Assembly: GCA_049602155.1 (NCBI GenBank)
Contig: JBMYRH010000009.1
Coordinates: forward strand, 95,391 to 159,390
Reading direction: 5' to 3'
DNA from: Myxococcota bacterium
GTDB taxonomy: Bacteria > Myxococcota_A > UBA9042 > PHBI01 > JBMYRH01
Length of the DNA stretch: 64,000 bases
Shown piece after piece: positions 6,022 to 40,294 of the stretch; position 1 is the stretch's first letter; each line of letters opens with the position of its first letter. Under the pieces are notes generated by a model that did not search any database, was not told the DNA's origin, and worked only from the letters and a program-made list of their open reading frames with translations. Made by a program: the position numbers and the translations under genes.

Positions 6022-8274
<2,253 letters not shown>

Positions 8275-8334
8275 GACTTCTCTCCCCGCCTGGTTTTCTG
8301 GCCTACGTTCAGGCTGCCTTCTACACTTCGTGCG

Positions 8335-14255: not shown

Positions 14256-17200
14256 TGTCTTCGGCCCTCCCCATACTCATCGCGCTGGCCGCGGTCGCCC
14301 AGAGTCCGGCGCCGTCTACGGCCGCTCCGTCGCTGGATCCACAGCCGGTTGAGGAGGCGGCGACCGAGGTGAAGGAGTTGCCTTCGCTGGACGAGGTCGC
14401 GCCGACGCTAGAGGTCACACAGCCCGTCGAGGCTGCGCCGCCTCACCCCTGTGTTGGCACATCGCTCTACTCGGTGCGCTTGGCGGGCTGTCGTGGACCT
14501 GTCTGCGACTCGGGAGAGATGCGCGCGGGCTTTGTGACCATCACCGACATCGAGCCGGGCCAGACCCTCTCTGCGAATGATGTGTCAGTGGCTATCGCGC
14601 GCCTTGAGGCGACGGGTTTCTTCCGGAGCGTGGCCCTAAAGTGCACGCGAAAGGGAGATCAACTGGCCCTCGTTGTGACGGTTGCGCCGCATCGCTTCGT
14701 CCGCAAAGTCTCGATCCGAGGCAACCAATTCTTCCGTGAGAGCGAGCTGTCTAAGCGCGTGACATTGCACAGCGGCGACGCCTTGAACGTCGAGCCGGGG
14801 CAAGAGTCAGACAGCGAGACCTTGAAGCGGCTCGTGGAGAGCTTGAAGGCCCTCTATTACAAGGAGGGACTTGAGGATGTGCGCTTTGACGTGAAGGTCG
14901 CGCTGATCGATGAGACCACGGTCGACCTCTCTGTCGAAATCACGGAGGGTGAGCGAGACCGCGTACGCTCCTTGGACATCGCCCATCAGCCGGCGGTCGT
15001 CACGCAGCGTGGCGCGATGAAGTGCCCCAGCGTGGAGCCTCGCAAGCTGAGCGCGCTCGTCGGCGTGAACGTTGGAGAGGTGGTCACGGAGCGTCAGCTC
15101 CGCGAGATGAAGCGGCGCCTGAAGAACTTCTTCCAATCGATTGGATTTGAGCGGCCTGACATCGAGGCTGATATCGTCGGCGATCCCTTGGTGCTCCGCG
15201 TCCGTGTCAAGACGAACCAATGCTGGCTGGTTCGAGTGTGGGAGCGTGAAGCCACTTCCTTGAGCGCCTCCCGTGCGGAGCCCGCGTTTCGCTTTCGTGA
15301 CCCGGTGGATACCGACGAGAGCTTCACGGACCCCGCACCGTATGAGCGCAGTCGACTTGAGCCATGGCGCGGCCTCTTGCCCTTCTATGAGTCCGGCGTC
15401 TTTGAGCGTGAAGAGGCGCTGCGTGGCGTGGAAGTGATTCGCGCGATTTTGGCCAGCCAGGGATTCCTCTTCGCCGATGTACGGCTTGAGCATCGGGTGT
15501 TGCAGACGCGCGATAAACGTCGCAATTCGGTGGGTGCATCGCCTGTGATGGGCACGATCGATTACTACCTCACCCGGAACTATGAGCGCCGACTTCAGGG
15601 GCTGACCTTTGAAGGACTGGAGAGCTTTGAAGAGGAGGTCTTGCTGAGCGTGATGGATACCCAGATGTATGATTTCTTGGGTGACCCTGGCGCGATTCAG
15701 ATCCAGAAGGTCCTCTACGACCTCACGAAGGTGAAGCGCTATTATCAAGAGCGTGGCTTCTATGCGTTCCGTTATGCGCTGACTGGAGAGCCTGAGCAGC
15801 GGAGCCCTCGGCGTGTGCGGCGCACGGAGGGCGACTCTGTCGTGTGGGAGTACCGCTTCCGAGATCGTGGCTTCAGGATCCGAAAGCGTAAGGGGCAGAT
15901 GGTCCTCTATCTAGAGATCCCGCTCATCGAGGGGCCGCAGACAAAGGCGACCAAGATCAACATCTTCGGGGCTAAGAGCTTGCCACCGATTTTGGCCAAG
16001 CTGTTGCTTGAGATTGAGACAGGAGGGGCCTACGGAAAGGTCATGCTTGAGTCGGGCCTCAAGCGTATCAAGCTCTGGTACTCCCAACGCGGCTACCATC
16101 AGATGAAGGTCTTCCCCACCTGCAAGGCCTATGATCCGGAGCCTGAGAACGGCGATTGCGACCCCTTCAACGTGCGCTCAGGCAAAGTGGAGATGGTCTA
16201 TCGCATCGATGAAGGCCCTCAAAGCAGCGTCGGTGAGATCTTCTGGCGCGGCAATTTCCGCACGGATCCAGAGGTCTTATTGCGCGACCTGCCACAGCCT
16301 GGTGATCCGTATCGTGCAGAGGATATCGCGACGGCTGCTCGGAAGCTCCGTAACCTTGGCGTCTTCAATTCGGTCAAGATCACCCCCATCGGCATCGATG
16401 AGACCCCGGCGCGAGATGAGATCGCGCTCCTCGTCACGGTCGAAGAGGGTAGGACGCGCTTCATCGATCTCGCGGTTGGTTTCCGCACCATCGATCGGGA
16501 CAGTGACGCGGGCACAAAGGCGCCCGCGTGGTTGGGCTCGATCATCGGTCAAGCGACAGCAGCCTCTGACCGATCCACCAACGGGTTGGCGCGGGGCAGG
16601 GCGCTCGGCTTGCCCGATGTCTTGCTCAAGGTGGAGGCGGAGTACCTTGAGTACAACTTCCTGGGCTTGGGCTGGCAGTTCACTTTGCCCGTGCAGTACG
16701 GGTTCTCGACGAGCGATCCGCTGCGCCTTGGTTCGTTGACCCCGACCATCCGTATCCCGCGGCCAGGGGGCACGGACTTGGAGACGGAGATTAAGCTCCT
16801 CGCGGAGATCGACCGGGTCAATGACCAGATCGATCGCACCGAATTCGGCCTCTATTCGTCACTCAATTGGCCGCTCATGGATCAGATGACCCTGGGGTTC
16901 GCGCTCGACTTTGGGATGATCTGCTTTAAGCAGCCGGGAGACAGCAACCCGATCTGTGATCTGGATGAGTACTCTCCTCAGTTCCGACCCTCAATCCGTT
17001 GGCGCTGGGACACTCAGAACAACCCCCTTAACCCCACCAAGGGCTTCACGCTCTCGGGCGAGTTTAAGTACATCTTCGGGCGCAGCAGTGACGAACTTAT
17101 CGGCCTTGAGACCGCCAATGATTTGGGCACCGAGTACGCCAATTTCTTGAAGTGGGAGACCAGCGCCGAGGTCGTGATAGACACGCGCATCGGACCGATC

Positions 17201-17761
17201 ATCGCGGCCTTTGTACGCTACGGTGGCAGCCATCAGATCGGCGGAGATGGTACGTCACTGCTCCCCGCCAACGAGATCTTCACGCTGGGGGGATCCAACG
17301 GTGTGCGAGGGTATACCGACCACGCCATCGGTCGCTATGACGCCGCTGGGCTCCTCGACCGTGGCTGGCTCGATGCGAACGGAAACCGCGTCGGCGCCAT
17401 CTACGATTATCGTCAAGATGGTGGCGGCAACGTGGTCCTCAACGGAAGCATGGAGGTTCGAATCCCGCTCGTGAAGCGAATTGGGCTCTGGGCGGCGACC
17501 TTTGTGGACGCAGGGGCGATCGCCCGAACGCACTCCGATATTCACCTTGAGAGCTTCCGTTTCTCCGCGGGCGCCGGCATTCGCTACCTCATCGGCAATC
17601 AGATCCCCGTGCGGCTCGACTGGGGGTTTGCGTTGGGCGACCCGCGCTGCACGGCTTGGTCCAGGACGGCGGACCTGTCCTCGGACACGCTCGCGGCGGA
17701 CGCCTGCGCCAAGGAAGAGGAGGGCAACCGCATTCACTTTGACCTGCTCTATCCGTTCTAG
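14255..17761 (+). CDS. Omp85-family outer-membrane protein (BamA/TamA-like) with extended N-terminal POTRA region.
   Basis: 1168 aa with a signal peptide (MSSALPILIALAAVAQSPA) and a Pro-rich linker. Repeated POTRA-like segments are followed by a C-terminal beta-barrel ending ...RIHFDLLYPF (terminal aromatic beta-signal). Confidence 0.75.
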   Translation: MSSALPILIALAAVAQSPAPSTAAPSLDPQPVEEAATEVKELPSLDEVAPTLEVTQPVEAAPPHPCVGTSLYSVRLAGCRGPVCDSGEMRAGFVTITDIEPGQTLSANDVSVAIARLEATGFFRSVALKCTRKGDQLALVVTVAPHRFVRKVSIRGNQFFRESELSKRVTLHSGDALNVEPGQESDSETLKRLVESLKALYYKEGLEDVRFDVKVALIDETTVDLSVEITEGERDRVRSLDIAHQPAVVTQRGAMKCPSVEPRKLSALVGVNVGEVVTERQLREMKRRLKNFFQSIGFERPDIEADIVGDPLVLRVRVKTNQCWLVRVWEREATSLSASRAEPAFRFRDPVDTDESFTDPAPYERSRLEPWRGLLPFYESGVFEREEALRGVEVIRAILASQGFLFADVRLEHRVLQTRDKRRNSVGASPVMGTIDYYLTRNYERRLQGLTFEGLESFEEEVLLSVMDTQMYDFLGDPGAIQIQKVLYDLTKVKRYYQERGFYAFRYALTGEPEQRSPRRVRRTEGDSVVWEYRFRDRGFRIRKRKGQMVLYLEIPLIEGPQTKATKINIFGAKSLPPILAKLLLEIETGGAYGKVMLESGLKRIKLWYSQRGYHQMKVFPTCKAYDPEPENGDCDPFNVRSGKVEMVYRIDEGPQSSVGEIFWRGNFRTDPEVLLRDLPQPGDPYRAEDIATAARKLRNLGVFNSVKITPIGIDETPARDEIALLVTVEEGRTRFIDLAVGFRTIDRDSDAGTKAPAWLGSIIGQATAASDRSTNGLARGRALGLPDVLLKVEAEYLEYNFLGLGWQFTLPVQYGFSTSDPLRLGSLTPTIRIPRPGGTDLETEIKLLAEIDRVNDQIDRTEFGLYSSLNWPLMDQMTLGFALDFGMICFKQPGDSNPICDLDEYSPQFRPSIRWRWDTQNNPLNPTKGFTLSGEFKYIFGRSSDELIGLETANDLGTEYANFLKWETSAEVVIDTRIGPIIAAFVRYGGSHQIGGDGTSLLPANEIFTLGGSNGVRGYTDHAIGRYDAAGLLDRGWLDANGNRVGAIYDYRQDGGGNVVLNGSMEVRIPLVKRIGLWAATFVDAGAIARTHSDIHLESFRFSAGAGIRYLIGNQIPVRLDWGFALGDPRCTAWSRTADLSSDTLAADACAKEEEGNRIHFDLLYPF

Positions 17762-23771: not shown

Positions 23772-24604
23772 GCCTCAGCACCTCCCATGGTCGCTGAGAG
23801 CCACAAAGGGACGACGGTCCGGGCATCTCGAGAGAGCTGAGTCTTGAGTCGGGCCGCTGTGGGGGCACCGCGGGCCACCTCGTACAGGTACGTCACAGAC
23901 CAGGGGCCGTTTCCAGGTGTGACTGCGATCATCGCCCCGCTCGCCCTTGCGCGCTTGAGTTGCTTGGGCGTGGGTGGGCTTGAGGAGTGATCGCCGGGCA
24001 CTTGAACGCTGAATTCGATCGCGTCGGAGGTGACGGAGAGGGCGACTCGGGGGCGATCGAGGAATCCAGGGGCTCCTTCACCCTCTGCCCACGTCATCGT
24101 GACGTGGTCGATAGACTTCATATGGGCTTCGAGCCGCCACGCAGACGTCCTGTTGGCCTCGGACGGAGAAGGATGCAATCGGTCGTTAGAGAGGCGCACC
24201 AACGTGGGGTGGAGCGCGTCCCCTAACGCAGCGAGGCCATCCCTCACTTGCTGGCGAAACAGGTTGTGCGTGGGATCGGCCGCGTGATGCCCAAGGGACA
24301 TCAAAGCGTCGCGGCTCACGAAGGGCGTCTCATCATCGTTCGCTGGCAAGATCACCGTCTCTGCGCTGTCGAACGCGACCCTCTCCTCGGGCTCAGCGAC
24401 CGCTTTGATGGGCGCGACGACGGGGGTTGGGATGAGGAGCGGACCCTGAGCGCTCAGCCAAGTGAGCACATCCTGGCTGATGAACCGCACCTGATCGGCG
24501 ATCACCACCCGTGGCATATCAGTCTCCTGAATCAGGCGAGCCAGGAGAGGTGGGTCGATTTGAAGGAGCTTCGCCAACTCCACGTCGGTCAACACCGGTG
24601 CCAT
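23768..24604 (-). CDS. Hypothetical protein with N-terminal excisionase/MerR-like HTH; co-transcribed with the kinase.
   Basis: 278 aa. The N-terminus LTDVELAKLLQIDPPLLARLIQETDMPRVVIADQVRF resembles an HTH_17/excisionase-like DNA-binding helix. There is a 4-nt overlap with the kinase start. Confidence 0.55.
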   Translation of the reverse strand: MAPVLTDVELAKLLQIDPPLLARLIQETDMPRVVIADQVRFISQDVLTWLSAQGPLLIPTPVVAPIKAVAEPEERVAFDSAETVILPANDDETPFVSRDALMSLGHHAADPTHNLFRQQVRDGLAALGDALHPTLVRLSNDRLHPSPSEANRTSAWRLEAHMKSIDHVTMTWAEGEGAPGFLDRPRVALSVTSDAIEFSVQVPGDHSSSPPTPKQLKRARASGAMIAVTPGNGPWSVTYLYEVARGAPTAARLKTQLSRDARTVVPLWLSATMGGAEA

Positions 24605-24702
24605 GGCCTGGAGTCTAGCCCGACCAGAGGGCTCTGCCTAGGTCCCCTTGGGACCATTTTTACGATCGCGCGGTCGTGTCGACCCAAGACGGGTTGGTTT
24701 GC

Positions 24703-26229
24703 TCAGCGCGTGCGCGACCTGCGCATCTGCTTTCCAGCTTTTGGTGCTGCCTTCTCTTTGCTCTTTTTCTTCGCCTTTTGGGGGATCACGTTGACGGACG
24801 GAGGGGCAGGTGCCCGCCTGGTGACTGGACGCTTGGGTACAGCTGTCCGTGTCCGTTTAGGGGTCACCCGTCGCGATCGGGTCGCCGGTGGTGCCACGAT
24901 TTTACGTGTCGTCGTTCGTGGACGCACGGCGGGCCGTGTCGGGCGCGTCGTGCGGGTCGCTTTGGGTCGTGGCGCGGGTCTCGGCGCTGGGCGCTGGGCG
25001 GCAGGTCGCCGTGGTGCTGCGCGTCGCGCTGCTGGCCGCTCCGGCGCTGCACTGCGGCGCCGTTGAGCAGCAGGAGGCTCGCGTGTGGGACGTGACTGAC
25101 CGCTGGGGCGTGCATCTCTCCGACGCTCTGGAGGTTGAGCGTAGCGTGGGTTTGTCGCAGGGAGTGGGCGTCGAGGTTCAGCACGTCGGGTCTCTTCCTC
25201 TTCGTCGTCGCCTCTGTCTTCGGGGCGATACGGCTTGGCCGTCTCGGACCACAGGTGTGTGGCTGCCTCCTCGGTCTTTTTGGGCTTCACGACGACGGTC
25301 GGCGTCGCAGGGCTGTGGCCCTTCGGCTTCACGACGACGGTCGGGGTACTGGATGCCTCGGCATATCGCGCGGCGCGGGTGCGTGTGTGATGGTGAACAT
25401 GACCGTGGCCGTGCGCGTGGTGGTAGTGGGCGTAGTGTCCGTAGAGCAAATGCCCAGGTCGATGCCACGTCCCAGCGACCCAATGGCCTGGGAGCCAGCG
25501 ATGGCCGTCCCAACAGCCGGGGGCCCAGGAGTAACCATGGCGGTGTGCGGGCCGCCAATAGCCCAGCCCCCATACGTAGTTCGTGGCGTAACCGGGGACC
25601 CAAATGAAGCCTGATCGGCGCGTGATTGGTGACCAGTAGCCGCCGTACCAGACGCCGTCTGCGTAGTAGCCGTTGACCCAGGCGTAGCCGTCCATGCTCG
25701 AGGGTCGCCAAAACCCAATCCGCCAAAGGCGCTGTGGGCCCAGGACGTGACCGGGGACCCAGACGGACTCGATCCGGTCGGTCGTGGGGCGCCAGTGACC
25801 TGAGATCCACGCACCGTCATCATCGTAATAGCCGTCGATCCACTCGAAGCCTTCGGCAACCTCGACGCGCCAGAAGCCCTGGACCCACACGCCATCATCG
25901 GCGCGGTGACCGCGCACCCACCGGTAGGTCTCACCGTCTTGAGGCGCCTCGGGGATCCACTGACCGGGGACGTTGAGTCCGTAGTCGTCGACATGAGGTG
26001 GGATCCAACGCTCATCGGGGCGCTCAGGTTCCCTGTAAAACCCCTGAATCCACGTCTCGTCTGCCGCGCGATGTCCAGGGACCCAGACCCACCCATCCGC
26101 TTCGGCTGCAGCGGCGTCAGAGCTATGTGTGATGGACGCGGGCGCTTGCGCATACGCCGGAACAGAGGCGGCACATATGAGCGCCGTCAGCGCGGCTGCG
26201 AGGGTGTGGTTGATTGAAGGGCTGGGCAT
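24703..26229 (-). CDS. Secreted YXWGXW-repeat protein with His-rich tract and basic Pro/Arg/Lys-rich C-terminal tail.
   Basis: Signal peptide MPSPSINHTLAAALTALICAASVPAYAQA, with AGGAG 6 nt upstream of ATG 26229. About 12 Trp/Gly repeats (WVPGHRA, WVRGHRADDGVWVQGFW, GYWSP, GYWRP, WLPGHWVAGTW). His tract HYAHYHHAHGHGHVHHH. The ~170-aa C-terminal tail is rich in R/P/K/T/A. Confidence 0.7.
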   Translation of the reverse strand: MPSPSINHTLAAALTALICAASVPAYAQAPASITHSSDAAAAEADGWVWVPGHRAADETWIQGFYREPERPDERWIPPHVDDYGLNVPGQWIPEAPQDGETYRWVRGHRADDGVWVQGFWRVEVAEGFEWIDGYYDDDGAWISGHWRPTTDRIESVWVPGHVLGPQRLWRIGFWRPSSMDGYAWVNGYYADGVWYGGYWSPITRRSGFIWVPGYATNYVWGLGYWRPAHRHGYSWAPGCWDGHRWLPGHWVAGTWHRPGHLLYGHYAHYHHAHGHGHVHHHTRTRAARYAEASSTPTVVVKPKGHSPATPTVVVKPKKTEEAATHLWSETAKPYRPEDRGDDEEEETRRAEPRRPLPATNPRYAQPPERRRDARPSGQSRPTREPPAAQRRRSAAPERPAARRAAPRRPAAQRPAPRPAPRPKATRTTRPTRPAVRPRTTTRKIVAPPATRSRRVTPKRTRTAVPKRPVTRRAPAPPSVNVIPQKAKKKSKEKAAPKAGKQMRRSRTR

Positions 26230-26404
26230 TGGAGCTCCTAGGTCGCGGGCGTCTGAGAACTCAGACGATGGCCCCCGCGATTTATTCAACGCGCCCTGCA
26301 AGCATGTCGACCCGCGGGTCTCCAGGCAAGACAAAGGCCCCGAAGCTAGGCGCGTGATGGCCAGCCTCGGAGCCCTTGTGGAGACTCACGATCGCGTCGG
26401 TCCG

Positions 26405-29400
26405 CTAGGGAGCGACGACGTGGATATTACCGACCATCATCGGGTGGAACTGACAACGGTAGTTGTAGTAGCCCTCGGTCGCCATGGTGACGGTCACGTT
26501 GCTCGTCGCACCGTCCTGCGCGTCGAAGATCGTGTCCTCAGCACACAGCAACTCGAAGGGATGACCCCCAGAGGCCTCGATGGTCACCGTTTGACCGACC
26601 GCGACGCGTAAGCATTTGGTCGAGTACGGAGAGCCTGCGCCCATGATCGCGACATCGATCGTCCCCTCCATGGCGGTCATATCACCAGCGACGAAGTCCT
26701 CCTCTGTGCAGTCCGCGTAGTCCGCCTCGCAGGCGAACGCGGGCGCGTCCGCCTCACAGACGCCTGCGTTGCAGCTCTCGCCGTCACCGCAAGTGCCACA
26801 GTCGATGGTGCCGCCGCAGCCGTCGGTCTCGGTGCCACAGGTGACGCCGTCGGAGCAGGCGATGGCCGGGGTGCAGTCCGCCTCACAGACGCCCGCGTTG
26901 CAGCTCTCGCCGTCTCCGCAGGTGCCACAGTTGACGGTGCCGCCGCAGCCGTCGTCCATGGTGCCGCAGACCATGCCCTCGGTGCACTCGGTGGCCGGGG
27001 TGCACGTCTCACACGCGCCGCATGTCCCTACACCGTCCGCGAAGCACACAGGCCCCACATCAACGGTCACGCCGCTGTTGACGTCGTCGGCGCCGACCTC
27101 GAAGAAGTAGTTGTTGTTCTCGGTGTCGAAGCTGCACTCGTCGGGTGCGCTGGAGATCACAGACCATGCACCGATGGTGGGCTTCCATTGCCAGGTCTTC
27201 GGTGAGAGGTACTGAGTGAAGCTGTAGATGCCGTCCATATCGGTGTCAGTGCCCGTGTTTGAGCAGGAGCCACACCATTCGTTGAACTCTCCTTGGAAGT
27301 TAGGTGCAGCGCTCGCATCGTAGCTGTTCATGTCGACGTGGAGCTCAACGTGAGCCCAACCGCAGACAGTGGACTCGCCACACTCCCACCATGCGCTTGT
27401 TGCCGTACAGGCCTCGCCATCGAAGCAACCCATGCAATCGCTGGGGCAACCGTTGGCGGCGAACGTCGGCTCATCGCTGACGCATGCACCGTCGGTGCAG
27501 GTCTCACCCTCGCCACAGGCGGGGTCGCACGCCACGGGAGCTTCACAGGCGCCGCAGGTGCCGAAGCCGTCTGCGAAGCACACAGGGCCGACCGCGACAA
27601 CCTCGCCGCTGTTGACGTCGTCTTCGGTGACCTCGAAGAAGTAGTTGCTGTCCTCAGCGTTGAACCGACACCCCTCAGGTGCGCTGGAGATCACAGTCCA
27701 CGATCCGATGCTCGGCTTCCACTGCCAGGTCTTGGGTGAGAGGTACTGCGTGAAGCTGTAGACGCCGTCCATGTCGTCGTCAGTGCCCGTATTGAAGCAG
27801 TCACCGCACCAGTCGTTGAACTCACCCTGGAAGTTGGGCGCAGCGTTCATGTCGTAGTTGTTCATGTCGACGTGGAGCTCGACCTGAGCCCAGCCGCAGA
27901 CAGTGGACTCACCGCAGGTCCACCACTCGTCGGTGGTCGTGCAGGTCGCGCCGTCGTAGCAGCCTTGGCAATCGGTGGGGCAGCCGTTCGCGGCCATGGG
28001 GGTCTCATCCGCCATGCACATGCCCGCGGTGCAGGTCTCGCCGTCGGCGCAGGTGCCGCACTCAAGGGTGCCACCACAGCCGTCGTCCATAGTGCCGCAG
28101 TTCATCGCGCCGCAATCAGCAGCAGGAGTGCATTCTGCGGTGCACATGCCCTCGGAGCAGGTCTCACCGTCGGCGCAAGTGCCGCACTCAATGGTGCCGC
28201 CGCAGCCGTCATCCATGGTGCCGCAGTTCATGGCCTCACCGCACTCGGTCGCTGGCTCGCAAGGATCGCTGCACGCGCCATCGACACAAAGCTGACCGTT
28301 CTCGGAGCAGTCCGTGGTCACGGCGGTGAACTCGCCACAGTCGTCCGCATCCTCATTACAGGACGCGTCGTATTCGGTGAGGATGTCGCCATCACAGGTC
28401 GCCGCTTGCTCACAGAGCGTCGCGGTCATCTCGTGGCCACAACCGTCGGCGTCACAGGTGGGGGCGTAGGTCCGGACCTCGGCCAAGCCGTTGGCTCCGA
28501 CGCACTCGCTGGCCTTCGGGACGTCGCAGTCCTCCACGTCGCTCGTGGTGTACTCACATGCGGTGCCCTCGGCGTTACAGGCGCCGGTGGCCTCGTACGC
28601 CACGATCATCAAGCCCATGCAGCCGTTCGCTTTCGCGTCCGAGCAGAGGCTGATGGTCTCGTCTTGGCCGCACACTCCGTCATCACAGGAGGGGGCGTAG
28701 GTCCAGGTCTGGGCTGCGACGGTGGTCGTGCACAGACCGTCGGTGCAGACCGCATCATCGTCGGCGCAGGGCGTGTCGTCGTCACAGGCGTCGCCCGTGA
28801 GTGAGGTCACGCATGCATCGTCTTGGGCGATATCGCAGTCCGTCGTAGCCTCTTCGTAGCTGCAGGGATCCGAGTCGTCCTCGGTCTCGGCGCAGACGCC
28901 AACTTGGGCGTAGGTCGTCGCCATCAGCCCATCGCAGCTGTCTGCGGGGGGCGCTTCACAAGCGACAGGGGTGTCGACACAGGCGCCAGTGGCGGTCTCG
29001 CAAGCTGAGGTGACGCAGTCGCCAGCGCTCGCGGCGCAGTCGACCTCGCTGTTCGGGACAGGCTTGCACTCACCGGTCTCTTCACCGACGAACTTCTGGC
29101 ATGACCAGATGCCGTTGCACATGTCGCCGTCGTCCAGGGACGCGCAGTCCTCTTCGGTGGTGCAGGCGGCGCAAGGCTCACCGTTACCTGGCTTACATGT
29201 GCCGTTTTGGCAGTAGTCGCCGTCGTTCTCGCAGTCTGCGCCGGGGGCGCAGCCTGTGCAGGGATCGCCGTCATCGCAGGCGAGGTAGTTCTCGACCGGA
29301 GTCAACTCGCACGCGCCCGTGCCTGGGTTGCACGCATTCGTGCGGCATCCACCGTTGTCGGAGCCCTCGGAGCAGGTGACCTCGCTGTCGGCCACTGGGG

Positions 29401-30085
29401 CGCAACTGCCCTCGACACAGCCCCAGAGTCCGTTGCAAAGGTCACCATCGTCGTAGATGGCGCACTCTGCGTCGGTCGAGCATGTGCAGATGTCACCGTC
29501 TTCGGTGACGCCGTTGATCTCTGCCCCTGCGCACGCGCCCTCGGCGCAGACATCGCCGCTCGTGCAGGGGTTGCCGTCGTCGCACACGGCTGCGTTCGCC
29601 GTGTTTGCACAGTCGCCAGTCTCGGCGTCGCAGGTGTCGTCAGTGCAGGGGTTGTCGTCGTCGCAGAGCACCGTCGACACGTCCACACAGAGGCCGCTCG
29701 CGCACTCGCCAATCGTGCACGCCGTCCAGTTCTCCTCGTTGCACGGCGTCCCGTCATCGGACGTCCGCACGACACATTGGCCACTGTCATTGCAGTAGCC
29801 GCCTTCGCAGGTCCCTGCGTCGGGGTGGTCGCATGAGGCCCATGTGCTGCGGGTCTGCTTCACGCAGGTGCCTGCATCACAGACTGCGTCCTCGCACGGC
29901 GTCAGGTCTGAGAAGGTGTCAGCGCACTCGGCGTCATACCCACACTCATGGTCTGGCGTCGGGATGTCCGTCGTGGCCGTCGAGCCAGCATCGGTCGTGG
30001 TGTCGATACCGCCGTCGTCGCTGCAAGCGATGAGCGCTGAGAAGCCAACGAGGATGGCGAGGGTAAAGATTCTGTTGGGCGTCAT
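26405..30085 (-). CDS. Giant Cys-rich multidomain lipoprotein (~1226 aa) with two CBM20/48-like modules and a C-terminal cupredoxin (amicyanin/pseudoazurin-like blue-copper) domain.
   Basis: ATG at 30085 with GGAGGT 9 nt upstream. Lipoprotein signal MTPNRIFTLAILVGFSALIACSDDGG. The N-terminal ~550 aa are myxo-type Cys-rich repeats (CDDDNPCTDDTCD, CDDGNPCTSGDVC, CDDGDPCTGC). There are four CGTMDDGCGGTxECGTCxDGExC modules and two ~145-aa modules with GEFNDWCG...DGVYSFTQYLSPKTWQWKPSIGSW (CBM20/48-like). The C-terminus ...IEASGGHPFEL...EGYYNYRCQFHPMMVGNIHVVAP fits the Y-x-Y-x-C-x-x-H-P-x-M type-1 copper signature. Confidence 0.8.
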   Translation of the reverse strand: MTPNRIFTLAILVGFSALIACSDDGGIDTTTDAGSTATTDIPTPDHECGYDAECADTFSDLTPCEDAVCDAGTCVKQTRSTWASCDHPDAGTCEGGYCNDSGQCVVRTSDDGTPCNEENWTACTIGECASGLCVDVSTVLCDDDNPCTDDTCDAETGDCANTANAAVCDDGNPCTSGDVCAEGACAGAEINGVTEDGDICTCSTDAECAIYDDGDLCNGLWGCVEGSCAPVADSEVTCSEGSDNGGCRTNACNPGTGACELTPVENYLACDDGDPCTGCAPGADCENDGDYCQNGTCKPGNGEPCAACTTEEDCASLDDGDMCNGIWSCQKFVGEETGECKPVPNSEVDCAASAGDCVTSACETATGACVDTPVACEAPPADSCDGLMATTYAQVGVCAETEDDSDPCSYEEATTDCDIAQDDACVTSLTGDACDDDTPCADDDAVCTDGLCTTTVAAQTWTYAPSCDDGVCGQDETISLCSDAKANGCMGLMIVAYEATGACNAEGTACEYTTSDVEDCDVPKASECVGANGLAEVRTYAPTCDADGCGHEMTATLCEQAATCDGDILTEYDASCNEDADDCGEFTAVTTDCSENGQLCVDGACSDPCEPATECGEAMNCGTMDDGCGGTIECGTCADGETCSEGMCTAECTPAADCGAMNCGTMDDGCGGTLECGTCADGETCTAGMCMADETPMAANGCPTDCQGCYDGATCTTTDEWWTCGESTVCGWAQVELHVDMNNYDMNAAPNFQGEFNDWCGDCFNTGTDDDMDGVYSFTQYLSPKTWQWKPSIGSWTVISSAPEGCRFNAEDSNYFFEVTEDDVNSGEVVAVGPVCFADGFGTCGACEAPVACDPACGEGETCTDGACVSDEPTFAANGCPSDCMGCFDGEACTATSAWWECGESTVCGWAHVELHVDMNSYDASAAPNFQGEFNEWCGSCSNTGTDTDMDGIYSFTQYLSPKTWQWKPTIGAWSVISSAPDECSFDTENNNYFFEVGADDVNSGVTVDVGPVCFADGVGTCGACETCTPATECTEGMVCGTMDDGCGGTVNCGTCGDGESCNAGVCEADCTPAIACSDGVTCGTETDGCGGTIDCGTCGDGESCNAGVCEADAPAFACEADYADCTEEDFVAGDMTAMEGTIDVAIMGAGSPYSTKCLRVAVGQTVTIEASGGHPFELLCAEDTIFDAQDGATSNVTVTMATEGYYNYRCQFHPMMVGNIHVVAP
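27000..28080. repeat. Intragenic tandem duplication, 2 copies of ~537 bp at ~85% identity, encoding the two CBM-like modules.
   Basis: Nearly identical stretches. Copy 1 (27181..): gcttccattgccaggtcttcggtgagaggtactgagtgaagctgtagatgccgtccat. Copy 2 (27711..): gcttccactgccaggtcttgggtgagaggtactgcgtgaagctgtagacgccgtccat. Similar antisense ORFs 26769..27110 and 27369..27644 in the track reflect the same repeat. Confidence 0.7.
28080..28300. repeat. Intragenic short tandem module (2 x ~117 bp) encoding CGTMDDGCGGTxECGTCADGETC. A second pair lies at about 26690..27000.
   Basis: Antisense ORF 27975..28295 shows two internal copies of VSPSAQVPHSxVPPQPSSxVPQF, and 26769..27110 shows two copies of LSPSPQVPQ..VPPQPS. 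The protein has four near-identical GC/GT Cys modules. Confidence 0.5.
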
Positions 30086-30298
30086 GAGGGCCGACCTCCG
30101 TGATTTGGGCCGCGTCACAGTATCCGAAGGTTGTGCCCGGGACAACAAGCGCCTGACACCCAATGGTCACTTGTCGTGATTCTGTGCCCGATATCATCAT
30201 AAGTGCTTGTTTACGCTGGTGAATAAAGTTTGGCAATGTGGGTTCGGATCGCCGTACTTCGGTGCCTCAGCAGAGTGATAAAAGAGGCACGACCGCCG

Positions 30299-32608
30299 TC
30301 AGGGGGCCAAGTAGGGGATCCACCGGAGGGGTAGCGGCACCGCAGTGCGGCCCTGCCAATCGAGGCGCTCGATGACCCCAGCCTTCTCTTTGCCGACCCG
30401 AAGGTGTTGGCTCGGGGCCTTGGGCCGAGCGCCTTTGAGGGCCTTCTTCGAGGGCGGCGCCGGGCGCCAGAACCCGAGCTCGTAGCGGACGCGATCTCGC
30501 CACGCGTTCAGCCCCGAGTAGACCCTGACCACGATCAGGCGGCCCTTTTTCCAGGTCCCTTCGGCGCTCAACGTCCTCGCGTTCATCGGCATCTTGGCCT
30601 CTGGTCCATCTTCGTTGAGGGGACGAGAGAGGCGGTTCAAAAAGGGGCGCCATCCCGCGCCAGGGTCGCGGCGGACCTCGAAGACGGCCTCAATCACTTC
30701 ACCATCGCGGTGCATGCTGTGGATGCGGTAGCCGTGGAGTGAGAGCTTCCCACCATAGCGCAGCGCTGGATCGAGGACGGTGCCCAGGGGGGCGAGCCAA
30801 GAGGCGACCTCCGCAGGGGTTTCATTCAGTTGAACCGCCAAGTTGTGGGCTGCGGCGTGCTGCCGGAGGGTCTCTGGTGGCGGGGCGCCCTCGCGGCGGC
30901 TCTCGGCCTGACTCTCATGCCCGGTCGCGAGCAACATCTCTGCTTCGAGCCAGGGGTCTCTCACCAGCGTTTGAGGCGGGTAGACGTGGCTTACGAGCCA
31001 GCGGTGCATCAGGTCGGCGGGCTCAGACTTGAGCCGGAGCCAAGTCACGTCTGGGGTGCTCACGGTCTCCCGCAGATCGATCACCAAGAAGTCCTCGATC
31101 ACGGTCACGGGGTGTTGGCTCATCGCGTCCGTCTGGAGCGCAGGGATCGCGAGCTGGGGGGCGCTCCTGAGGTCCACAACCGCCATCGCAGATCGCGCGA
31201 CGTTCTTTAACACCTTCGTACGCTCTGTGACCTTGATGCGGCGGAACCTTCGGTCCAAGTAGAAGGCAAACTGGAACTTCGCAGTGAGCATCTCATCGTG
31301 GACCGCGATCTGGTCGTCAGGGGTCGTCTGCGTGTGGATCCAGCGCGCCACCACGGCGTGACGTCGTCGGTAGTCTTCACCCTCTTTGGGGGCTGGATCG
31401 GCGAAGCGTGTGCGGTAGTGCGTCCCCGCGATCCCCGACGCACCCTGTAAGAGGATCAAGCCGGTGGCCACCGAGAGGGTGATCGCTCTGGACCACCTTG
31501 GGCCAGGGCGCCACTGAGCCGCGCGCCGAGCCACCTCTGTGAGGGCCACGATCACGTCGGCCCCGGCGATCACGAAGTACACGGCCGCGAACATGGGCCA
31601 GAAGTCGTGGACCCACGCCCCCTGCCTGAAGATCACGACCCACGCAGTCCCCAGCCCCAAGAACGCGAGCGCCGCGTTGTGCTTCATCCCCCATCGCCCC
31701 TCCTTCGCGTCTCGCCGGGCGATCCATGGCCAGAAGAGACCCGCCAGGACCAGGGTAGGGGTCATGAGGTCGACCCATCGAGGCCCTTGGCGGCTCAAGA
31801 CATGAGCCACAGTCTTGCCCTTGCCGTTTTGACGAAAGCGCCCGACGTCTCGAAAGGCTTGGATGAAGTCGTCGCCGCCGTAGAGCTCAGAGAGGTGCCA
31901 CAGGACACCGAAGAAGCCGATGAGTACGGCGGCACAGAAGGGCGCGATCCAGCCCCACTCGATGCGCCGCCGCTTCAGCATGGGGACCGCGACTGTGCAG
32001 GCCAGCCAGAAGGCGAAGACAAACCAAGGCCAGTCTGACCAGGCCCCCAAGATCGCCACCCCTGCGCTCGCTGCGACCCACCTGCGTTGATGCGTCTCAC
32101 ACCACCGCATCCACGTCCAAAGGCTCGCTAGGCAGAAGAGCAGCACCAGGGCCTCTTGATTCACGAAGGGACCGTAGTAGGCGAGCATCGGTGTGGTGAT
32201 GAAGAGGATCATGGCCGCCCAGCGGCCCGGCCCGGAGGGCCACCATCTGCGCGCCATATCCGCGAAGAGTAGGAAGCCTAAGAGCATCAAGATCGCGGGG
32301 ACGAGCCGCGCTTGCCATTCACCGACACCGAAGACGCTGAACGAGGCACCTACGAGCAGGTGAATGCCCACCGGGTGATGCCAGTAGTGCTTAAACTCAT
32401 CTGGCTTGGCCCTTGGGTCGAGGTTCTCGACCGGGCCGTACTTCGCCTTCTCAAACCCGTGCCGCACGAAATTGCGGGCGGCGACGGCGCGTCGCGCGGC
32501 GCACCAACCTTTGTGGCCAAAGAGGAACTCTTCATTCACGCTCTGGAGGTTCACCGCCACAGAGAGGGCGAGGCAGAGGCCCAAGCCGATGCGGTGAAGC
32601 CGTGTCAC
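30299..32608 (-). CDS. Polytopic membrane protein, putative GT-C-fold (PMT/ArnT-like) glycosyltransferase with ~300-aa C-terminal soluble domain.
   Basis: GTG start 32608 immediately after the rlmD stop (32605-32607); the longer track start at 32812 would overlap rlmD by 200 nt. At least 10 hydrophobic helices in the first ~450 aa (LGLCLALSVAVNL, LVPAILMLLGFLLFADM, AAMILFITTPMLAYYGPF, LVLLFCLASLWTWM, ...). The function call is by architecture only. Confidence 0.55.
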   Translation of the reverse strand: MTRLHRIGLGLCLALSVAVNLQSVNEEFLFGHKGWCAARRAVAARNFVRHGFEKAKYGPVENLDPRAKPDEFKHYWHHPVGIHLLVGASFSVFGVGEWQARLVPAILMLLGFLLFADMARRWWPSGPGRWAAMILFITTPMLAYYGPFVNQEALVLLFCLASLWTWMRWCETHQRRWVAASAGVAILGAWSDWPWFVFAFWLACTVAVPMLKRRRIEWGWIAPFCAAVLIGFFGVLWHLSELYGGDDFIQAFRDVGRFRQNGKGKTVAHVLSRQGPRWVDLMTPTLVLAGLFWPWIARRDAKEGRWGMKHNAALAFLGLGTAWVVIFRQGAWVHDFWPMFAAVYFVIAGADVIVALTEVARRAAQWRPGPRWSRAITLSVATGLILLQGASGIAGTHYRTRFADPAPKEGEDYRRRHAVVARWIHTQTTPDDQIAVHDEMLTAKFQFAFYLDRRFRRIKVTERTKVLKNVARSAMAVVDLRSAPQLAIPALQTDAMSQHPVTVIEDFLVIDLRETVSTPDVTWLRLKSEPADLMHRWLVSHVYPPQTLVRDPWLEAEMLLATGHESQAESRREGAPPPETLRQHAAAHNLAVQLNETPAEVASWLAPLGTVLDPALRYGGKLSLHGYRIHSMHRDGEVIEAVFEVRRDPGAGWRPFLNRLSRPLNEDGPEAKMPMNARTLSAEGTWKKGRLIVVRVYSGLNAWRDRVRYELGFWRPAPPSKKALKGARPKAPSQHLRVGKEKAGVIERLDWQGRTAVPLPLRWIPYLAP

Positions 32609-33981
32609 TGCGCAGCTCGGCGCAGGGCCACCCCGACCTCCACGTGTGGGGTGTGGGGGAACATGTCGAAGGTCGCGACGTCGGTGATGACGAACCCAGC
32701 GTCGATCAAGCGCTTGAGATCCCGGCTCAGGCTTCTTGATTCGCATGAGGCGTAGATCACCGTGACCTCGCCTTTCAGCGCCGTGATCGCGTCGATGACA
32801 GCCGGCGCGCACCCTGCGCGAGGGGGATCTAGGATGACCGCGTCCGCCCCCTCGGCGAGGACGCGTGGGGCGGCTGTCGCGGCGTCCTCGGTGATGGCGG
32901 TGACTGCGGAGGCCTCAAGCAGCTCGATGTTCCGCATCGAGTCCTCGGAGGCGAGCGGGTGACTCTCGATGAGGGTCACTCGGTCGGCGCGCGCGCGGCT
33001 CGCGAGCCCTAAGACGCCGGCGCCGGCGTAGAGATCGACCAGGTGTGTCATCCGCTCAGGGAGCCACTGCCCCAGGGTCGTCACCATGGCCTCTGCCATG
33101 TCATGTCGCGTCTGTATAAAAGAGGTCGGCCCCACCTGGAGGTTGAGATCGCCGTAGGAGACGCTCTGCCGCCGCTTGCCTCGCAGATGGACGTTCCGTT
33201 CGCCGAGCATCGGCCCAGAGCCCTTGGGGTTGATGTTGGCGTGGACGCCGCAGACCCCCTCGATCCGGATCAACTGTTGAGCGGCCTGAGCGACCTTGGG
33301 GCCCGGCTTGACCGAGAGGATGAGGGTCAGGATCCCCTCCTCGCGGCCCGGATCGACCCGATACAGGAACCCACGGATCACCCCAGGGCGCTCTTCACTT
33401 CGCCATGTCGGCCAGTCAAGCCGTGCCAAGATGTGGTGAGCGTGCTTGAGGACGCTGTTGACCCGTCGATGTTGAATGACGCAGCTGTCGACCGGGACCA
33501 AGTCCTGGGTCCCCGGCGCATAAAACCCCATCCGCATGGATCCACCGCGATGCCGAAGCACCATGAGCGCACGGGTGCGGTACCCGAGGCTGTACTCCGG
33601 ACCAATCCACCCATGATGCCGGGTCGCGTCGTCGCAAAGGGGCGCCAAGAGCTCCTTCACCTGAGTGGCTCGAACCTCTCTCTGCAGCGACATCGAGGCG
33701 GGCTGCCAGGGGCATCCACCGCAGCTCGTGACGACCGGGCAGGGCGCCTCGACCCGATATTTAGAGGGCTCAGTCAGCGTCTGAATTTGCCCCACGTTGA
33801 TGTGCTTGCCCGTGTGCGTAATACGCAGCTGAGCGGAGTCGCCAGGCACGCCGCCTAGGACGCGCACCTCAGCGTCTCCGACCCGCGCCAGTGAGCCACC
33901 ACGTCGCTCGAGCGACGTGATGGTGGCCTCCACCAAGTCACCTTGATTGAAGGGTCGCTTACGCCGAGGTGACTTGGCCAT
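32605..33981 (-). CDS. rlmD: 23S rRNA (uracil-C5)-methyltransferase RlmD/RumA-like (TRAM plus 4Fe-4S plus SAM methyltransferase).
   Basis: The internal ATG (MAKSPRRKRPFNQGDLVEATITSLERRG) is chosen. TRAM-like N-terminus, Cys cluster CPVVTSCGGCPW, SAM-MTase motifs DLYAGAGVLG and ILDPPRAG, and C-terminal VIYASCES. Confidence 0.85.
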   Translation of the reverse strand: MAKSPRRKRPFNQGDLVEATITSLERRGGSLARVGDAEVRVLGGVPGDSAQLRITHTGKHINVGQIQTLTEPSKYRVEAPCPVVTSCGGCPWQPASMSLQREVRATQVKELLAPLCDDATRHHGWIGPEYSLGYRTRALMVLRHRGGSMRMGFYAPGTQDLVPVDSCVIQHRRVNSVLKHAHHILARLDWPTWRSEERPGVIRGFLYRVDPGREEGILTLILSVKPGPKVAQAAQQLIRIEGVCGVHANINPKGSGPMLGERNVHLRGKRRQSVSYGDLNLQVGPTSFIQTRHDMAEAMVTTLGQWLPERMTHLVDLYAGAGVLGLASRARADRVTLIESHPLASEDSMRNIELLEASAVTAITEDAATAAPRVLAEGADAVILDPPRAGCAPAVIDAITALKGEVTVIYASCESRSLSRDLKRLIDAGFVITDVATFDMFPHTPHVEVGVALRRAAQ

Positions 33982-33983
33982 GA

Positions 33984-37538
<3,555 letters not shown>

Positions 37539-37692
37539 GTAAGGCCTCCGATTCAGCTCCGCAGCGGTCTTCTGCGGGCAAAGGGCGGCCTATCCAAGCA
37601 GCAAACTCGCGCGCGAGCAATATGGATCCCATTGACGGCGTCCGTGCCCCTCGTTATGCAGGGCAGGAACCTTGCCTAAAGGGAGCCTGGCC

Positions 37693-38634
37693 ATGTCCTT
37701 TCGCGAGCTCGTAGAACGTTACGCTAAGACCTACCCGGCGCTCGGCCTCGTCGGCAACACGCCGCTGGTGCGGGTGGACCTCTTTAAGGATGAATTTCCT
37801 GATGTCGAGGTCTACGCCAAGGTGGAGAGCTTCAACCCAGGGGGCTCCCTCAAGGACCGCCCTGTCCTCTACATGCTCTTGAGCGCCTTGGAGGACGGTC
37901 GACTGGACGCCTCGAAGACCATTATGGACAGCTCGAGCGGTAACGCAGGGATCGCCTATGCGTGGATCGGCCAAGTGCTCGGTGTGCCGGTCAAGCTCGT
38001 GATCCCCGACAACGCGAGCGCCGAGCGAAAGAAGCGCATGCGGTCGCACGGGGCTGAGATTCATCACACCAGCGCGCACGAAGGTTATGATGAGGCGCTG
38101 CGCGAGGTACGCCGCCTCGCGGCCGCCGATCCGGACACGATCTTCTTCTGCGATCAGTACGGTAACGACTTCAACTGGCGCGCGCACTACGAGACGACCG
38201 CTGAGGAGATCTGGGAGCAGACCTCGGGGCGCATCACGCACTTCGTCTGTGGCGTCGGGACCGGCGGAACCCTGACAGGGACGTCGAAGCGCTTGAAAGA
38301 GCTGAACCCTGCCATCCAGACCGAGTGCTGTGTCCCGGACGCGTTCCCTGGCGTGGAGGGGCTCAAGCCTCTGAAAGATCCGGAGGACATCGTCCCGGAG
38401 ATCTTGGACAAGACGCTCATCGACCGCATGTGGGACACGGACGTCGATGTGGCCTGGGAGATGAGCCAGAAGCTCGCCAAGGCCGGGCTCTTCGCCGGGC
38501 AGTCCTCGGGGGCCTACATGGCGGGCGTTTATGACGTCGCCAAGGACCTCCACCAACGAGGAGAGCCAGGTGTCATCGTCACGTTGCTCTGCGACATCGG
38601 CGAGCGGTACATGTCGACCCGCCTCTGGGATTGA
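37693..38634 (+). CDS. Cysteine synthase family PLP enzyme (CysK/CysM-like).
   Basis: SFNPGGSLKDRP (PLP lysine motif), SSGNAGIAYA, GVGTGGTLTG. ATG 37693 is preferred (AAGGGAG 9 nt upstream) over the track TTG start at 37672. Confidence 0.85.
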   Translation: MSFRELVERYAKTYPALGLVGNTPLVRVDLFKDEFPDVEVYAKVESFNPGGSLKDRPVLYMLLSALEDGRLDASKTIMDSSSGNAGIAYAWIGQVLGVPVKLVIPDNASAERKKRMRSHGAEIHHTSAHEGYDEALREVRRLAAADPDTIFFCDQYGNDFNWRAHYETTAEEIWEQTSGRITHFVCGVGTGGTLTGTSKRLKELNPAIQTECCVPDAFPGVEGLKPLKDPEDIVPEILDKTLIDRMWDTDVDVAWEMSQKLAKAGLFAGQSSGAYMAGVYDVAKDLHQRGEPGVIVTLLCDIGERYMSTRLWD

Positions 38635-38644
38635 GATACTCCGC

Positions 38645-39265
38645 TTAGTCGAGCGACAGCTCGCTGGCCCCGAGGGCGCGCGCAAGCATTCGAACGATCG
38701 TCTGATTGTCCCCCGAGCCGGGCACGATCAAGTCCGCCTCTCTCCTTGAGCGATGCCCAAATTGCTCATGCATCGGGCGCACGGTCTCAAGGTATTGATG
38801 CAGCACGCCATCAACGTCGCGTCCACGCTCCGCGATGTCTCGCTGCACACGACGGGCTAAGCGTATGTCGTCTGGGGTCTCGACATAGATCTTCACGTCC
38901 AGCAGGTCAGTCAGCTCCGGGAAGACGAAGACCAAGATCCCCTCGACCAGAATGACGGGCCGCGGCTCGATGACCTCGCCGCCGCTCATCCGCGCGTGGT
39001 GGGCGAAGTCATAGCGCGGCGCGGTCACACTGTGTCCCGCGCGAAGTGCCCGCAGCTGATCGGCGAAGAGCTGCGCGTCGATGCTCTCGGGGTGGTCGAA
39101 ATTGACGGTCGCGCGCGCCTCGACGCTGAGGCCAGACAGGTCGCGGTAGTAATTATCCTGACTGACCGTGGCGCAGCGCTCTGCTCCGAGCGCGCGGGCC
39201 AGTCGCCTCGCGAGAGTGCTCTTCCCGGAGGCGGTGCCCCCGGCGATCCCGATCAAATGAGGCAT
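38645..39265 (-). CDS. udk: Uridine kinase.
   Basis: 206 aa. P-loop IGIAGGTASGKST. DNYY...FDHP and LVEGI are typical of Udk/PRK. Confidence 0.9.
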   Translation of the reverse strand: MPHLIGIAGGTASGKSTLARRLARALGAERCATVSQDNYYRDLSGLSVEARATVNFDHPESIDAQLFADQLRALRAGHSVTAPRYDFAHHARMSGGEVIEPRPVILVEGILVFVFPELTDLLDVKIYVETPDDIRLARRVQRDIAERGRDVDGVLHQYLETVRPMHEQFGHRSRREADLIVPGSGDNQTIVRMLARALGASELSLD

Positions 39266-39274
39266 GCCAGCGAC

Positions 39275-40294
39275 CTACCAGGCCTGATCCGCATCAGCCG
39301 CCAAGGCCACGTGCTGCCCGGTGCCGATCCTGCGGTGAGTGCCGGTGTCCGAGGAGTACCCCAGCTGTGAGAGCTCGGCGATGTGCTGTGCGACCTCGTC
39401 GCGTTGCTCTACGGCCGAGGGGTCTTGCACATAGATGCGGTAGTGGTGAAGCGCTTCGCGGACGCGCCCGGTTGTCTCAAGCGCCCGAGCATACGCCAGG
39501 TGACACTCCGGGAAGACGGACCGGAGCCCGAGGGCCTCTTGGAATGCCGCGATCGCCTCGTCGAGGCGGGCACTCCGAGCCAACGCCTGCCCAATGGCGA
39601 AGTGAGCGCGGGCGTGCCGTGCATCGAATTCAAGGATCGTCTGGTAGGCATCGAGCGCGAGGTCGATGTGGCCACTCTTCAGGTAGCAGTTGCCGAGGTT
39701 GTAGTATGCCTTCACGTAGGTCGGTGATTGATGGATTGTGCGGCGGTACTGCTCGACTGCCTCGTCGTTGAGGTCCATCAGTGCGTAGACATAGGCCAGC
39801 ATGAAGCGGGCCTTGTAGAATCGTGGTTCGCTCGCGAGCGCGCGGCGGAACGCCCCCGCAGCGGCCTGCAGCAGGCCCTTCTCTTTGAAGGCGTGCCCCA
39901 GGTTGAAGTGGGCGCGAGAGTAGTCGGGGCGCAGCTGGATCGCGCCGCGGTAGGCGCGGAGCGCGAGGTCGATCTCGCCACACTCGAAGTAGACGTTCCC
40001 GAGGGCGAATGCTGTCTCGGCGTTGCTCGGATCGAGGCGATTGGCTCGGGCGAAGGCGATGCGGCTGCCCTCAAGCCGGCCCAAGGCGCTCATTGTCGTG
40101 CCGAGGGCGAAGTGCCCCTCCGCGCTATCGGGCTCCAGCTGAGTAGCGAGGTAGAGCCGCTCGGAGGCGTCGTTTAGTTGGCCGGCGTCGTGTAGCGCCA
40201 GGCCCAGGTGTCGATGGTGGCTCGCCTGCCCAGGCTGAAGGCGCGCAGCGCTGCGCCAGTAGATGATCTTCAGCGCTGTAAGGGCACGCTTCAC
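39275..40294 (-). CDS. TPR-repeat protein.
   Basis: 339 aa with ~8 TPR units (AEGHFALGTTMSALGRLEGS, AETAFALGNVYFECGEIDLALRAY, SRAHFNLGHAFKEKG, VKAYYNLGNCYLKSG, ARAHFAIGQALARS). GTG start. Confidence 0.8.
   Translation of the reverse strand: MKRALTALKIIYWRSAARLQPGQASHHRHLGLALHDAGQLNDASERLYLATQLEPDSAEGHFALGTTMSALGRLEGSRIAFARANRLDPSNAETAFALGNVYFECGEIDLALRAYRGAIQLRPDYSRAHFNLGHAFKEKGLLQAAAGAFRRALASEPRFYKARFMLAYVYALMDLNDEAVEQYRRTIHQSPTYVKAYYNLGNCYLKSGHIDLALDAYQTILEFDARHARAHFAIGQALARSARLDEAIAAFQEALGLRSVFPECHLAYARALETTGRVREALHHYRIYVQDPSAVEQRDEVAQHIAELSQLGYSSDTGTHRRIGTGQHVALAADADQAW

Follow-up and report, generated by a model that had tools for sequence, protein, structure and literature searches.

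The 64,000-nucleotide stretch of Myxococcota DNA analysed here (contig JBMYRH010000009.1; "the window" denotes the stretch at its full length) carries, on its minus strand at positions 30299 to 32608, a gene for a membrane protein that is, judged by its family match and predicted fold, a glycosyltransferase of the GT-C/PMT_2 type. The protein is very probably a functional inner-membrane enzyme, a periplasm-facing, polyprenyl-phosphate-sugar-dependent transferase whose synthesis is coupled to the upstream gene rlmD, a judgement that covers identity, start and general mechanism and leaves the acceptor to be weighed separately. According to the mechanism proposed, the enzyme would be made from the rlmD message via GTGA-coupled translation. 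Its donor would be a polyprenyl-phosphate-sugar that other enzymes, encoded elsewhere, synthesise and flip; a single sugar would be taken from it and passed to an exported acceptor, positioned by the periplasmic alpha/beta and beta-sandwich region of the protein. The gene and its parts are as follows.

30299..32608, minus strand: coding sequence of the GT-C glycosyltransferase (769 amino acids, GTG start, stop codon 30299-30301)
31406..32608, minus strand: predicted transmembrane catalytic domain (residues 1-401), from AlphaFold2 (AF2) helices, hydropathy and positive-inside analysis
32009..32380, minus strand: match to Pfam PMT_2 (PF13231; residues 77-200, E = 1.3e-9, 38.9 bits, gathering score 26.1)
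30809..31378, minus strand: C-terminal alpha/beta subdomain (residues ~411-600), which holds the stretch AIPALQTDAMSQHP quoted in the original prediction; block-mean predicted local distance difference test (pLDDT) of ~75-94 in the AF2 model
30359..30793, minus strand: C-terminal beta-sandwich subdomain (residues ~606-750) of the AF2 model

The gathering threshold of PMT_2 was also reached, or nearly so, by the relatives P0011 to P0036. The AF2 model of the protein, computed with the family alignment as input, had a pLDDT of 80.6 and a predicted template modelling score (pTM) of 0.77. The comparison with GT-C structures that the original prediction had proposed was run as a Foldseek search of this model against the PDB and was positive: all 25 matches at E ≤ 1e-3 were GT-C enzymes, the probability was 1.00 for the top 30, and ArnT ranked first (5f15, 3.5e-7; 5ezm, 6.1e-7), with STT3, PglB, ALG9/ALG12, DPY19, AftA, Pmt4 and EmbB among the other matches. 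Sequence searches of the PDB gave no significant match, whether the query was the protein alone or the family profile. A GT-C glycosyltransferase resembling PMT and ArnT had been predicted, and both the PMT_2 score and the Foldseek matches agree with this assignment. In a comparison with locus L012, the ratios of nonsynonymous to synonymous substitution rates (dN/dS) were 0.09 for the transmembrane part, 0.11 for the alpha/beta part and 0.09 for the beta-sandwich, values indicative of purifying selection on each of these parts; dS was near saturation.

The only NCBIfam match of the protein was the archaeal Agl23 (TIGR03663, E = 1.9e-9), which raises the alternative of a non-catalytic GT-C-like membrane protein with a flippase-associated or scaffolding role; the canonical first-loop Asp, moreover, is not strictly kept in the wider family. 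However, the score of 37.1 bits lies far under the NCBIfam cut-off of 126.25 and the match is confined to residues 85-190, so that the protein is not assigned to Agl23, and conserved His, Arg, Asn, Glu and Asp side chains are grouped at the periplasmic face, an arrangement shared with active GT-C enzymes. A non-catalytic role is hence very improbable. The NCBIfam scan returned no ArnT model and no model for the GT-C protein.

Eleven transmembrane helices are predicted, with the N-terminus inside and the C-terminal region in the periplasm. The spans comprise residues 3-22 (TM1), 80-118 (TM2, long and kinked), 127-143, 151-172, 175-188, 193-213, 218-242, 284-299, 308-326, 337-360 and 374-396, and the short loops rich in Arg and Lys (119-129, 173-176, 212-216, 298-309 and 360-373) are placed inside. 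That the protein would open with a transmembrane helix had been anticipated, and this agrees with the AF2 model, where the first helix spans residues 3-22; the N-terminal sequence cited earlier, V/M-TRLHRIGLGLCLALSVAVNL, was likewise correct. TM1 is followed by model helices at residues 26-30 and 32-54, which give the structured first loop characteristic of GT-C enzymes.

In the narrow family, residues E26, G31, H32, G34, W35, R39, R40 and N46 of the first loop are invariant. When 33 relatives of 17-73% identity were aligned, every strongly conserved polar residue mapped to the side predicted to be periplasmic. These are E26, H32, R40 and N46 (first loop), W76-H77-H78-P79, N150 and E152, D192, R259, and H334. 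In this alignment H32, H78, P79 and H334 are invariant, conservation reaches 90% or more at R40, N46, N150 and R259, position 152 is acidic in 33 of 33 sequences (31 Glu, 2 Asp) and position 192 in 31 of 33. The active site would thus face the periplasm, with contributions from the first loop, from the W-H-H-P motif (top of TM2) and from N150/E152, D192, R259 and H334. Two weak alignments bear on the same residues. The family profile (hmmsearch, E ~1) aligned FVN150-Q-E152 with the Y-D-N-E metal-binding motif of STT3A, placing E152 on E169, and hhalign against E. coli ArnT (probability 14.6%) placed E152 on D135 and H77-H78-P79 on E60-K61-P62.

Use of a polyprenyl-phosphate-linked donor is hinted at, by analogy, by the distant relative L016, in which a GT2 gene directly precedes the GT-C gene. 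The same cluster contains LPG_synthase_TM and methyltransferase genes and resembles the classic arrangement of donor synthase, flippase candidate and GT-C enzyme (PMC11127046). Four points weigh against the mechanism as proposed. The topology was derived from AF2 helices, hydropathy and the positive-inside rule and is not the output of a topology predictor. E26, invariant in the narrow family only, is kept in 20 of the 33 sequences of the wider set. The two residue alignments agree with each other, yet both are weak and are taken as leads only. Finally, the scanned open reading frames (ORFs) of at least 250 aa in the window include neither a polyprenyl-phosphate sugar synthase gene nor a flippase gene, so that there is no local three-component system of GT2 synthase, flippase and GT-C enzyme among them; the scan covered most ORFs of this size, apart from large ones of 1467, 1168 and 1347 aa (9852-17761, plus strand; 46626-50669, minus strand).

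The start of the GT-C gene is set by its junction with the gene directly upstream.

32605..34047, minus strand: rlmD, the 23S rRNA U1939 methyltransferase gene (TIGR00479, Pfam tRNA_U5-meth_tr)
32605..32608, minus strand: GTGA stop/start overlap (GT-C GTG 32608-32606, rlmD TGA 32607-32605), read from the sequence
32605..32608, minus strand: probable translational coupling site, with equivalent overlaps in L001-L007, L010 and L012

The reading frame is intact, and its longest ORF (30299..32812, minus strand, 837 aa) does reach into rlmD, as had been noted. Initiation at GTG 32608 gives the 769-aa product. On the minus strand, rlmD ends ...CGC CGA GCT GCG CAG TGA and the GT-C gene opens GTG ACA CGG CTT..., two bases (GTGA) being common to the start codon of the one and the stop codon of the other. 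The original prediction had placed the GTG start immediately after the rlmD stop; position 32608 and the coordinates hold, whereas the two codons overlap rather than abut. The aligned start position is common to all nine aligned database homologues (40-84% identity). The junction takes the form TGATG in L001-L004 and of GTGA or another 4-nt overlap in L005-L007, L010 and L012; L009, with a 20-nt gap between rlmD and the GT-C gene, is the sole junction without overlap. The stop/start overlap is thereby kept in eight related lineages, the ninth being the one with the gap. Over the 204-nt extension (32812..32609), the GC content at third codon positions (GC3) is 0.47 when the GT-C frame is read but 0.84 when the rlmD frame is, and it is 0.81 in the body of the GT-C gene; the extension is thus identified as rlmD coding sequence read out of frame. 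Homologue starts, junctions and GC3 are three independent supports, and GTG 32608 is the true start.

A start further upstream (GTG 32812 or ATG 32746), with an N-terminal extension overlapping rlmD, would be compatible with a frame that stays open back to 32812. Apart from the GC3 values, however, the extension is present in none of the homologues, and the C-terminus of RlmD fits its family models almost fully (PF05958 to residue 477 and TIGR00479 to residue 470, of 480), so that the likelihood of such a start is close to nil. With the start at GTG 32608, the conserved GTGA/TGATG overlap suggests, from the anatomy of the junction, that translation of the GT-C gene is coupled to that of rlmD.

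The C-terminal soluble region comprises residues 405-769, that is ~365 aa instead of the ~300 aa first estimated. When it was modelled alone (pLDDT 81.3, pTM 0.82), an alpha/beta part was again followed by a beta-sandwich. The Pfam scan assigned the region to no family, and a Foldseek search with the region alone gave no match at E ≤ 1e-3, so it is without a specific solved relative. In these respects the earlier view that the domain is alien to ArnT and PMT was sustained; on the other hand, C-terminal periplasmic domains are normal in GT-C enzymes, ArnT and PglB/STT3 among them. Because the alignment of the full model with ArnT spans 599 columns on a 541-residue target, the alpha/beta half is probably, as far as the model can tell, an ordinary ArnT-like periplasmic domain, and the terminal beta-sandwich of ~150 aa looks like the real addition. 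Positions 1 to ~550 are matched by many relatives, 500-600 aa in length, and a few dozen reach ~700. Extra periplasmic domains are known on other GT-C enzymes, namely the carbohydrate-binding modules (CBMs) of EmbA-C, AftD and GT136 ORF12 (PMC11127046).

Within the well-known GT-C/PMT_2 type, the protein is a member of a small subfamily that is distinct, rare and uncharacterised and occurs in uncultured Myxococcota. A protein search over 5.8 billion proteins gave ten relatives, nine of which were aligned with the window protein; these nine share 40-84% identity and measure 746-807 aa, except for one truncated at 637 aa. In this last homologue (P0004, on an ENA contig), similarity is lost after about residue 600 and the protein ends early, probably through a frameshift or because the copy is truncated. 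A profile search of 1.84 billion representatives returned 1833 relatives at E ≤ 1e-3, of which 116 passed E ≤ 1e-30. The narrow subfamily itself is rare: clustering at 90% identity leaves ten groups, and at 50% three full-length representatives. A motif scan of 185,579 GTDB species found one locus, in a Myxococcota metagenome-assembled genome (MAG), and of the motif scans of metagenomes the first gave no match and a later one distant relatives only. The nearest named relatives come from MAGs labelled Myxococcota or Deltaproteobacteria, and relatives with a source annotation are called 'hypothetical protein'. A distinct GT-C subfamily had been suspected from the start, and its rarity, the lack of a name, the few clusters and the absence of an NCBIfam model all bear this out.

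Comparison with characterised systems placed the protein near several GT-C families and inside none of them. ArnT (undecaprenyl-phosphate-L-Ara4N:lipid A transferase, GT83, 5EZM/5F15) is the best structural match, with a TM-score of 0.54 normalised on ArnT; in both proteins a multi-span core is followed by a periplasmic C-terminal domain, and in the weak profile alignment H77-H78-P79 falls on E-K-P and E152 on D135. The two differ in that identity is 14-15% (hhalign probability 14.6%), His replaces the Glu-Lys of ArnT, the window protein has ~220 extra C-terminal residues including the beta-sandwich, and the scanned window ORFs include no arn operon (arnBCADEF-like) and no ArnC or ArnE/F genes. 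Without a family model match or arn context, the protein is not placed in GT83.

PMT enzymes (GT39) belong to the same Pfam clan, and Pmt4 and Pmt1/2 are among the structural matches, but the Pfam scan detected neither PF02366 nor MIR at E ≤ 1, so the protein is not assigned to GT39. TMTC1-4 match the same PMT_2 model (PMC7801869) and offer a parallel in concept, a PMT_2 core joined to a domain that recognises the acceptor. The core is present here without a TPR match, and the modelled C-terminus consists of alpha/beta and beta-sandwich parts, so the protein is not of the TMTC type. PMT and TMTC enzymes have protein acceptors, whereas here the acceptor is a candidate only.

GT136 ORF12, EmbA/B/C and AftD likewise combine a GT-C core with an extra beta-rich periplasmic domain. 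The distant relative L016, preceded by a GT2 gene and with LPG_synthase_TM in its cluster, recalls the GT-C enzymes with CBMs (PMC11127046); the window gene, by contrast, lies between rlmD and a lipoprotein gene with no synthase or flippase among the scanned ORFs, and its C-terminal domain has no specific CBM match. PglB, STT3 and AglB share the GT-C fold (matches at E ~1e-6) and a large C-terminal periplasmic domain, and FVNQE aligns weakly with the YDNE motif of STT3A. At 11-13% identity, and with WWDxG nowhere in the translated sequence (the sole WW being that of RRWWPSG), the protein is not counted among the oligosaccharyltransferases.

The gene downstream of the GT-C gene provides the best single acceptor candidate, although this identification is tentative.

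26405..30085, minus strand: Cys-rich lipoprotein gene, downstream of the GT-C gene; probable start ATG 30085, lipobox ...LIAC
30117..30145, minus strand: predicted sigma-70-like promoter of the lipoprotein gene (-35 TTGTCC 30145-30140, 17-nt spacer, -10 TACTGT 30122-30117)

In this case, the enzyme would be a dedicated protein glycosyltransferase that (O-)glycosylates the lipoprotein at its tether or Cys-rich module, the C-terminal domain recognising the acceptor, and would parallel, in a bacterium, TMTC, actinobacterial Pmt and other substrate-specific PMT_2 enzymes; both the assignment and the parallel are possible, if doubtful. In every narrow-family locus with context, a homologous lipoprotein gene lies directly downstream: wherever the GT-C protein is at least 40% identical, the order is rlmD, GT-C and then the same-strand Cys-rich lipoprotein gene, and GT-C relatives below 36% identity have neither rlmD nor the lipoprotein as a neighbour. 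The second-tier relatives P0011, P0012 and P0013 lie on short contigs with uninformative context. The homologue was found directly downstream on the same strand in the window and in L001-L012, including L008, with 42-85% identity between loci; L001, L003 and L005 carry it as well, though gene callers had missed or miscalled it there.

The lipoproteins share a lipobox ...AC followed by DDG, an acidic tether rich in Ser, Thr and Gly (14-19 residues, 2-8 of them Ser/Thr) and a conserved N-terminal module of ~360-400 aa with an invariant Cys pattern, whereas their C-terminal parts vary. In the window, the module is followed by two near-identical ~190-aa repeats (weak Pfam X25_BaPul_like, E = 1.3e-4) and a cupredoxin-like end with a C...H...M pattern (weak Pfam Copper-bind, E = 0.02); the C-termini of other copies contain Fasciclin and LTD (L004) or BfoA_C (L006). 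A literature search on BfoA returned no relevant paper. In favour of the lipoprotein as acceptor are the Ser/Thr content of the tether and the absence of any terminator-like site between the two genes. There is also a precedent in streptococcal GT-C enzymes whose targets are disordered regions rich in Ser and Thr, that of the lipoprotein PrsA among them (PMC12041528). The conserved W-x-x-C motif was considered as a C-mannosylation site and dropped: DPY19 was only the 19th fold match, and the Trp is more simply explained as structural.

Other observations count against this pairing. A predicted promoter of the form TTGTC[CG]-17-TA(A/C)(G/T)GT, with the -10 forms TAAGGT, TACTGT and TAATGT, aligns in 8 loci (the window, L002, L004, L006, L009, L010, L012 and L017, the last without a GT-C gene; L008 is similar by eye, TTGAGG ... 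TAACGT) and lies ~31 nt upstream of the lipoprotein ATG. This aligned element indicates that the lipoprotein gene has its own promoter and is not simply co-transcribed with the GT-C gene, which is tied to rlmD instead. Two contigs of an outgroup lineage, furthermore, carry rlmD followed by the lipoprotein orthologue P0165 with no GT-C gene between them (L017, a 5.0-Mb contig, 7527-10956; L018, 1931-5360); the lipoprotein gene lies 82 nt downstream of rlmD, and the same promoter is kept. Two metagenome motif scans found no GT-C relative on the 5.0-Mb contig, although a divergent copy could escape them. The malic enzyme of the L017 genome is more distant from that of the window (66% identity) than is that of the L008 MAG (72%), which has the GT-C gene on the same contig, in keeping with a later insertion of the GT-C gene. 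The Ser/Thr content of the tether is also equal with and without an adjacent GT-C gene.

As judged from these loci, the pairing of rlmD with the lipoprotein gene predates the GT-C gene or extends to more lineages. In the simplest history, the GT-C gene was inserted into an old rlmD-lipoprotein pair in one clade, or was lost in one lineage. Since the wider gene order is also broadly conserved in the clade, the linkage may be inherited, and together with the outgroup pair lacking the GT-C gene this gives the conserved GT-C/lipoprotein adjacency less weight. It is rather unlikely that the GT-C gene was both inserted into the older pair and then dedicated to the modular Cys-rich surface lipoprotein; if so, the C-terminal domain would recognise the folded Cys-rich module or the tether, in a bacterial, single-substrate analogue of the domain-specific O-mannosylation by TMTC. 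The claim that the enzyme is dedicated to the neighbouring lipoprotein is accordingly not established: the adjacency is constant, but the lipoprotein gene has its own promoter and the outgroup pair lacks the GT-C gene.

For most characterised bacterial ArnT-like GT-C enzymes, the acceptor is a glycan or a lipid. As an acceptor class, envelope glycans or lipids are about as likely as the lipoprotein or more so, without reaching the level of a probable assignment. The enzyme would then transfer a side-chain sugar onto lipopolysaccharide (LPS), lipid A, exopolysaccharide or another lipid-linked glycan in the manner of ArnT, Gtr-type, Emb/Aft or GT136 enzymes, its beta-sandwich would serve as a carbohydrate-binding module and the adjacency to the lipoprotein gene would be historical, a set of proposals that deserves serious consideration while falling short of an even case. 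It is consistent with ArnT as the top structural match, with the binding of glycan acceptors by the C-terminal CBMs of GT-C enzymes (PMC11127046) and with the clustering of the distant relative with GT2, LPG_synthase_TM and methyltransferase genes. Against it stand the lack of a polysaccharide or LPS cluster around the gene, whose scanned neighbours are housekeeping genes, and the lack of an ArnT model match in NCBIfam. The remainder of the probability falls to other acceptors.

Over the final ~85 nt upstream of the lipoprotein ATG, the window, L012 and L004 have almost the same sequence despite a dS of ~1.1-1.25; an operator or a leader RNA might lie in this segment as well. A promoter-like match at 30223-30196 was set aside, as it is not conserved in L004, and the conserved TTGTCC-17-TACTGT was preferred. 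Terminator-like sites (minus strand 30661-30646 and 32040-32028, inside the GT-C gene; two more on the plus, non-coding strand) were judged to be due to chance, as 4 were found and shuffling gave an expectation of 1.7 ± 1.2. L001 and L002, contigs from sister samples with the same GT-C protein (P0005), differ by a 100-bp insertion in the lipoprotein repeat region of L001 (~12145-12246), which shifts the frame and led gene callers to opposite-strand ORFs; it may be a repeat copy-number variation or an assembly artefact.

RlmD scored 250 bits against TIGR00479 (cut-off 183.55), and the true start of its gene is likely ATG 33981, 2 nt past the stop of the next gene upstream on the same strand, which encodes an S8 peptidase/FG-GAP protein of 1184 aa (33984-37538). 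With this spacing, the S8/FG-GAP, rlmD and GT-C genes form a tightly packed same-strand array; the spacing between the first two recurs in L004. The scanned genes of the window are housekeeping genes (parA/parB, malic enzyme, truA, gshB, dapF and dnaJ). A 597-aa ORF (50715-52508, plus strand) had no Pfam match, and an Rfam scan of positions 24000-40000 gave no match.

Bacteria contain a great many GT-C enzymes of the PMT_2 type, and the acceptor is known for few of them. The subfamily described here offers a compact candidate enzyme-substrate pair, consisting of the GT-C protein and a conserved lipoprotein module, together with a conserved set of residues. Should the lipoprotein not be the acceptor, the outcome would be a matter of routine annotation, namely a corrected start and the placing of a hypothetical protein in its family. 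If it is the acceptor, the pair would represent substrate-dedicated periplasmic protein glycosylation in Myxococcota and would give a role to the unclassified C-terminal domain.

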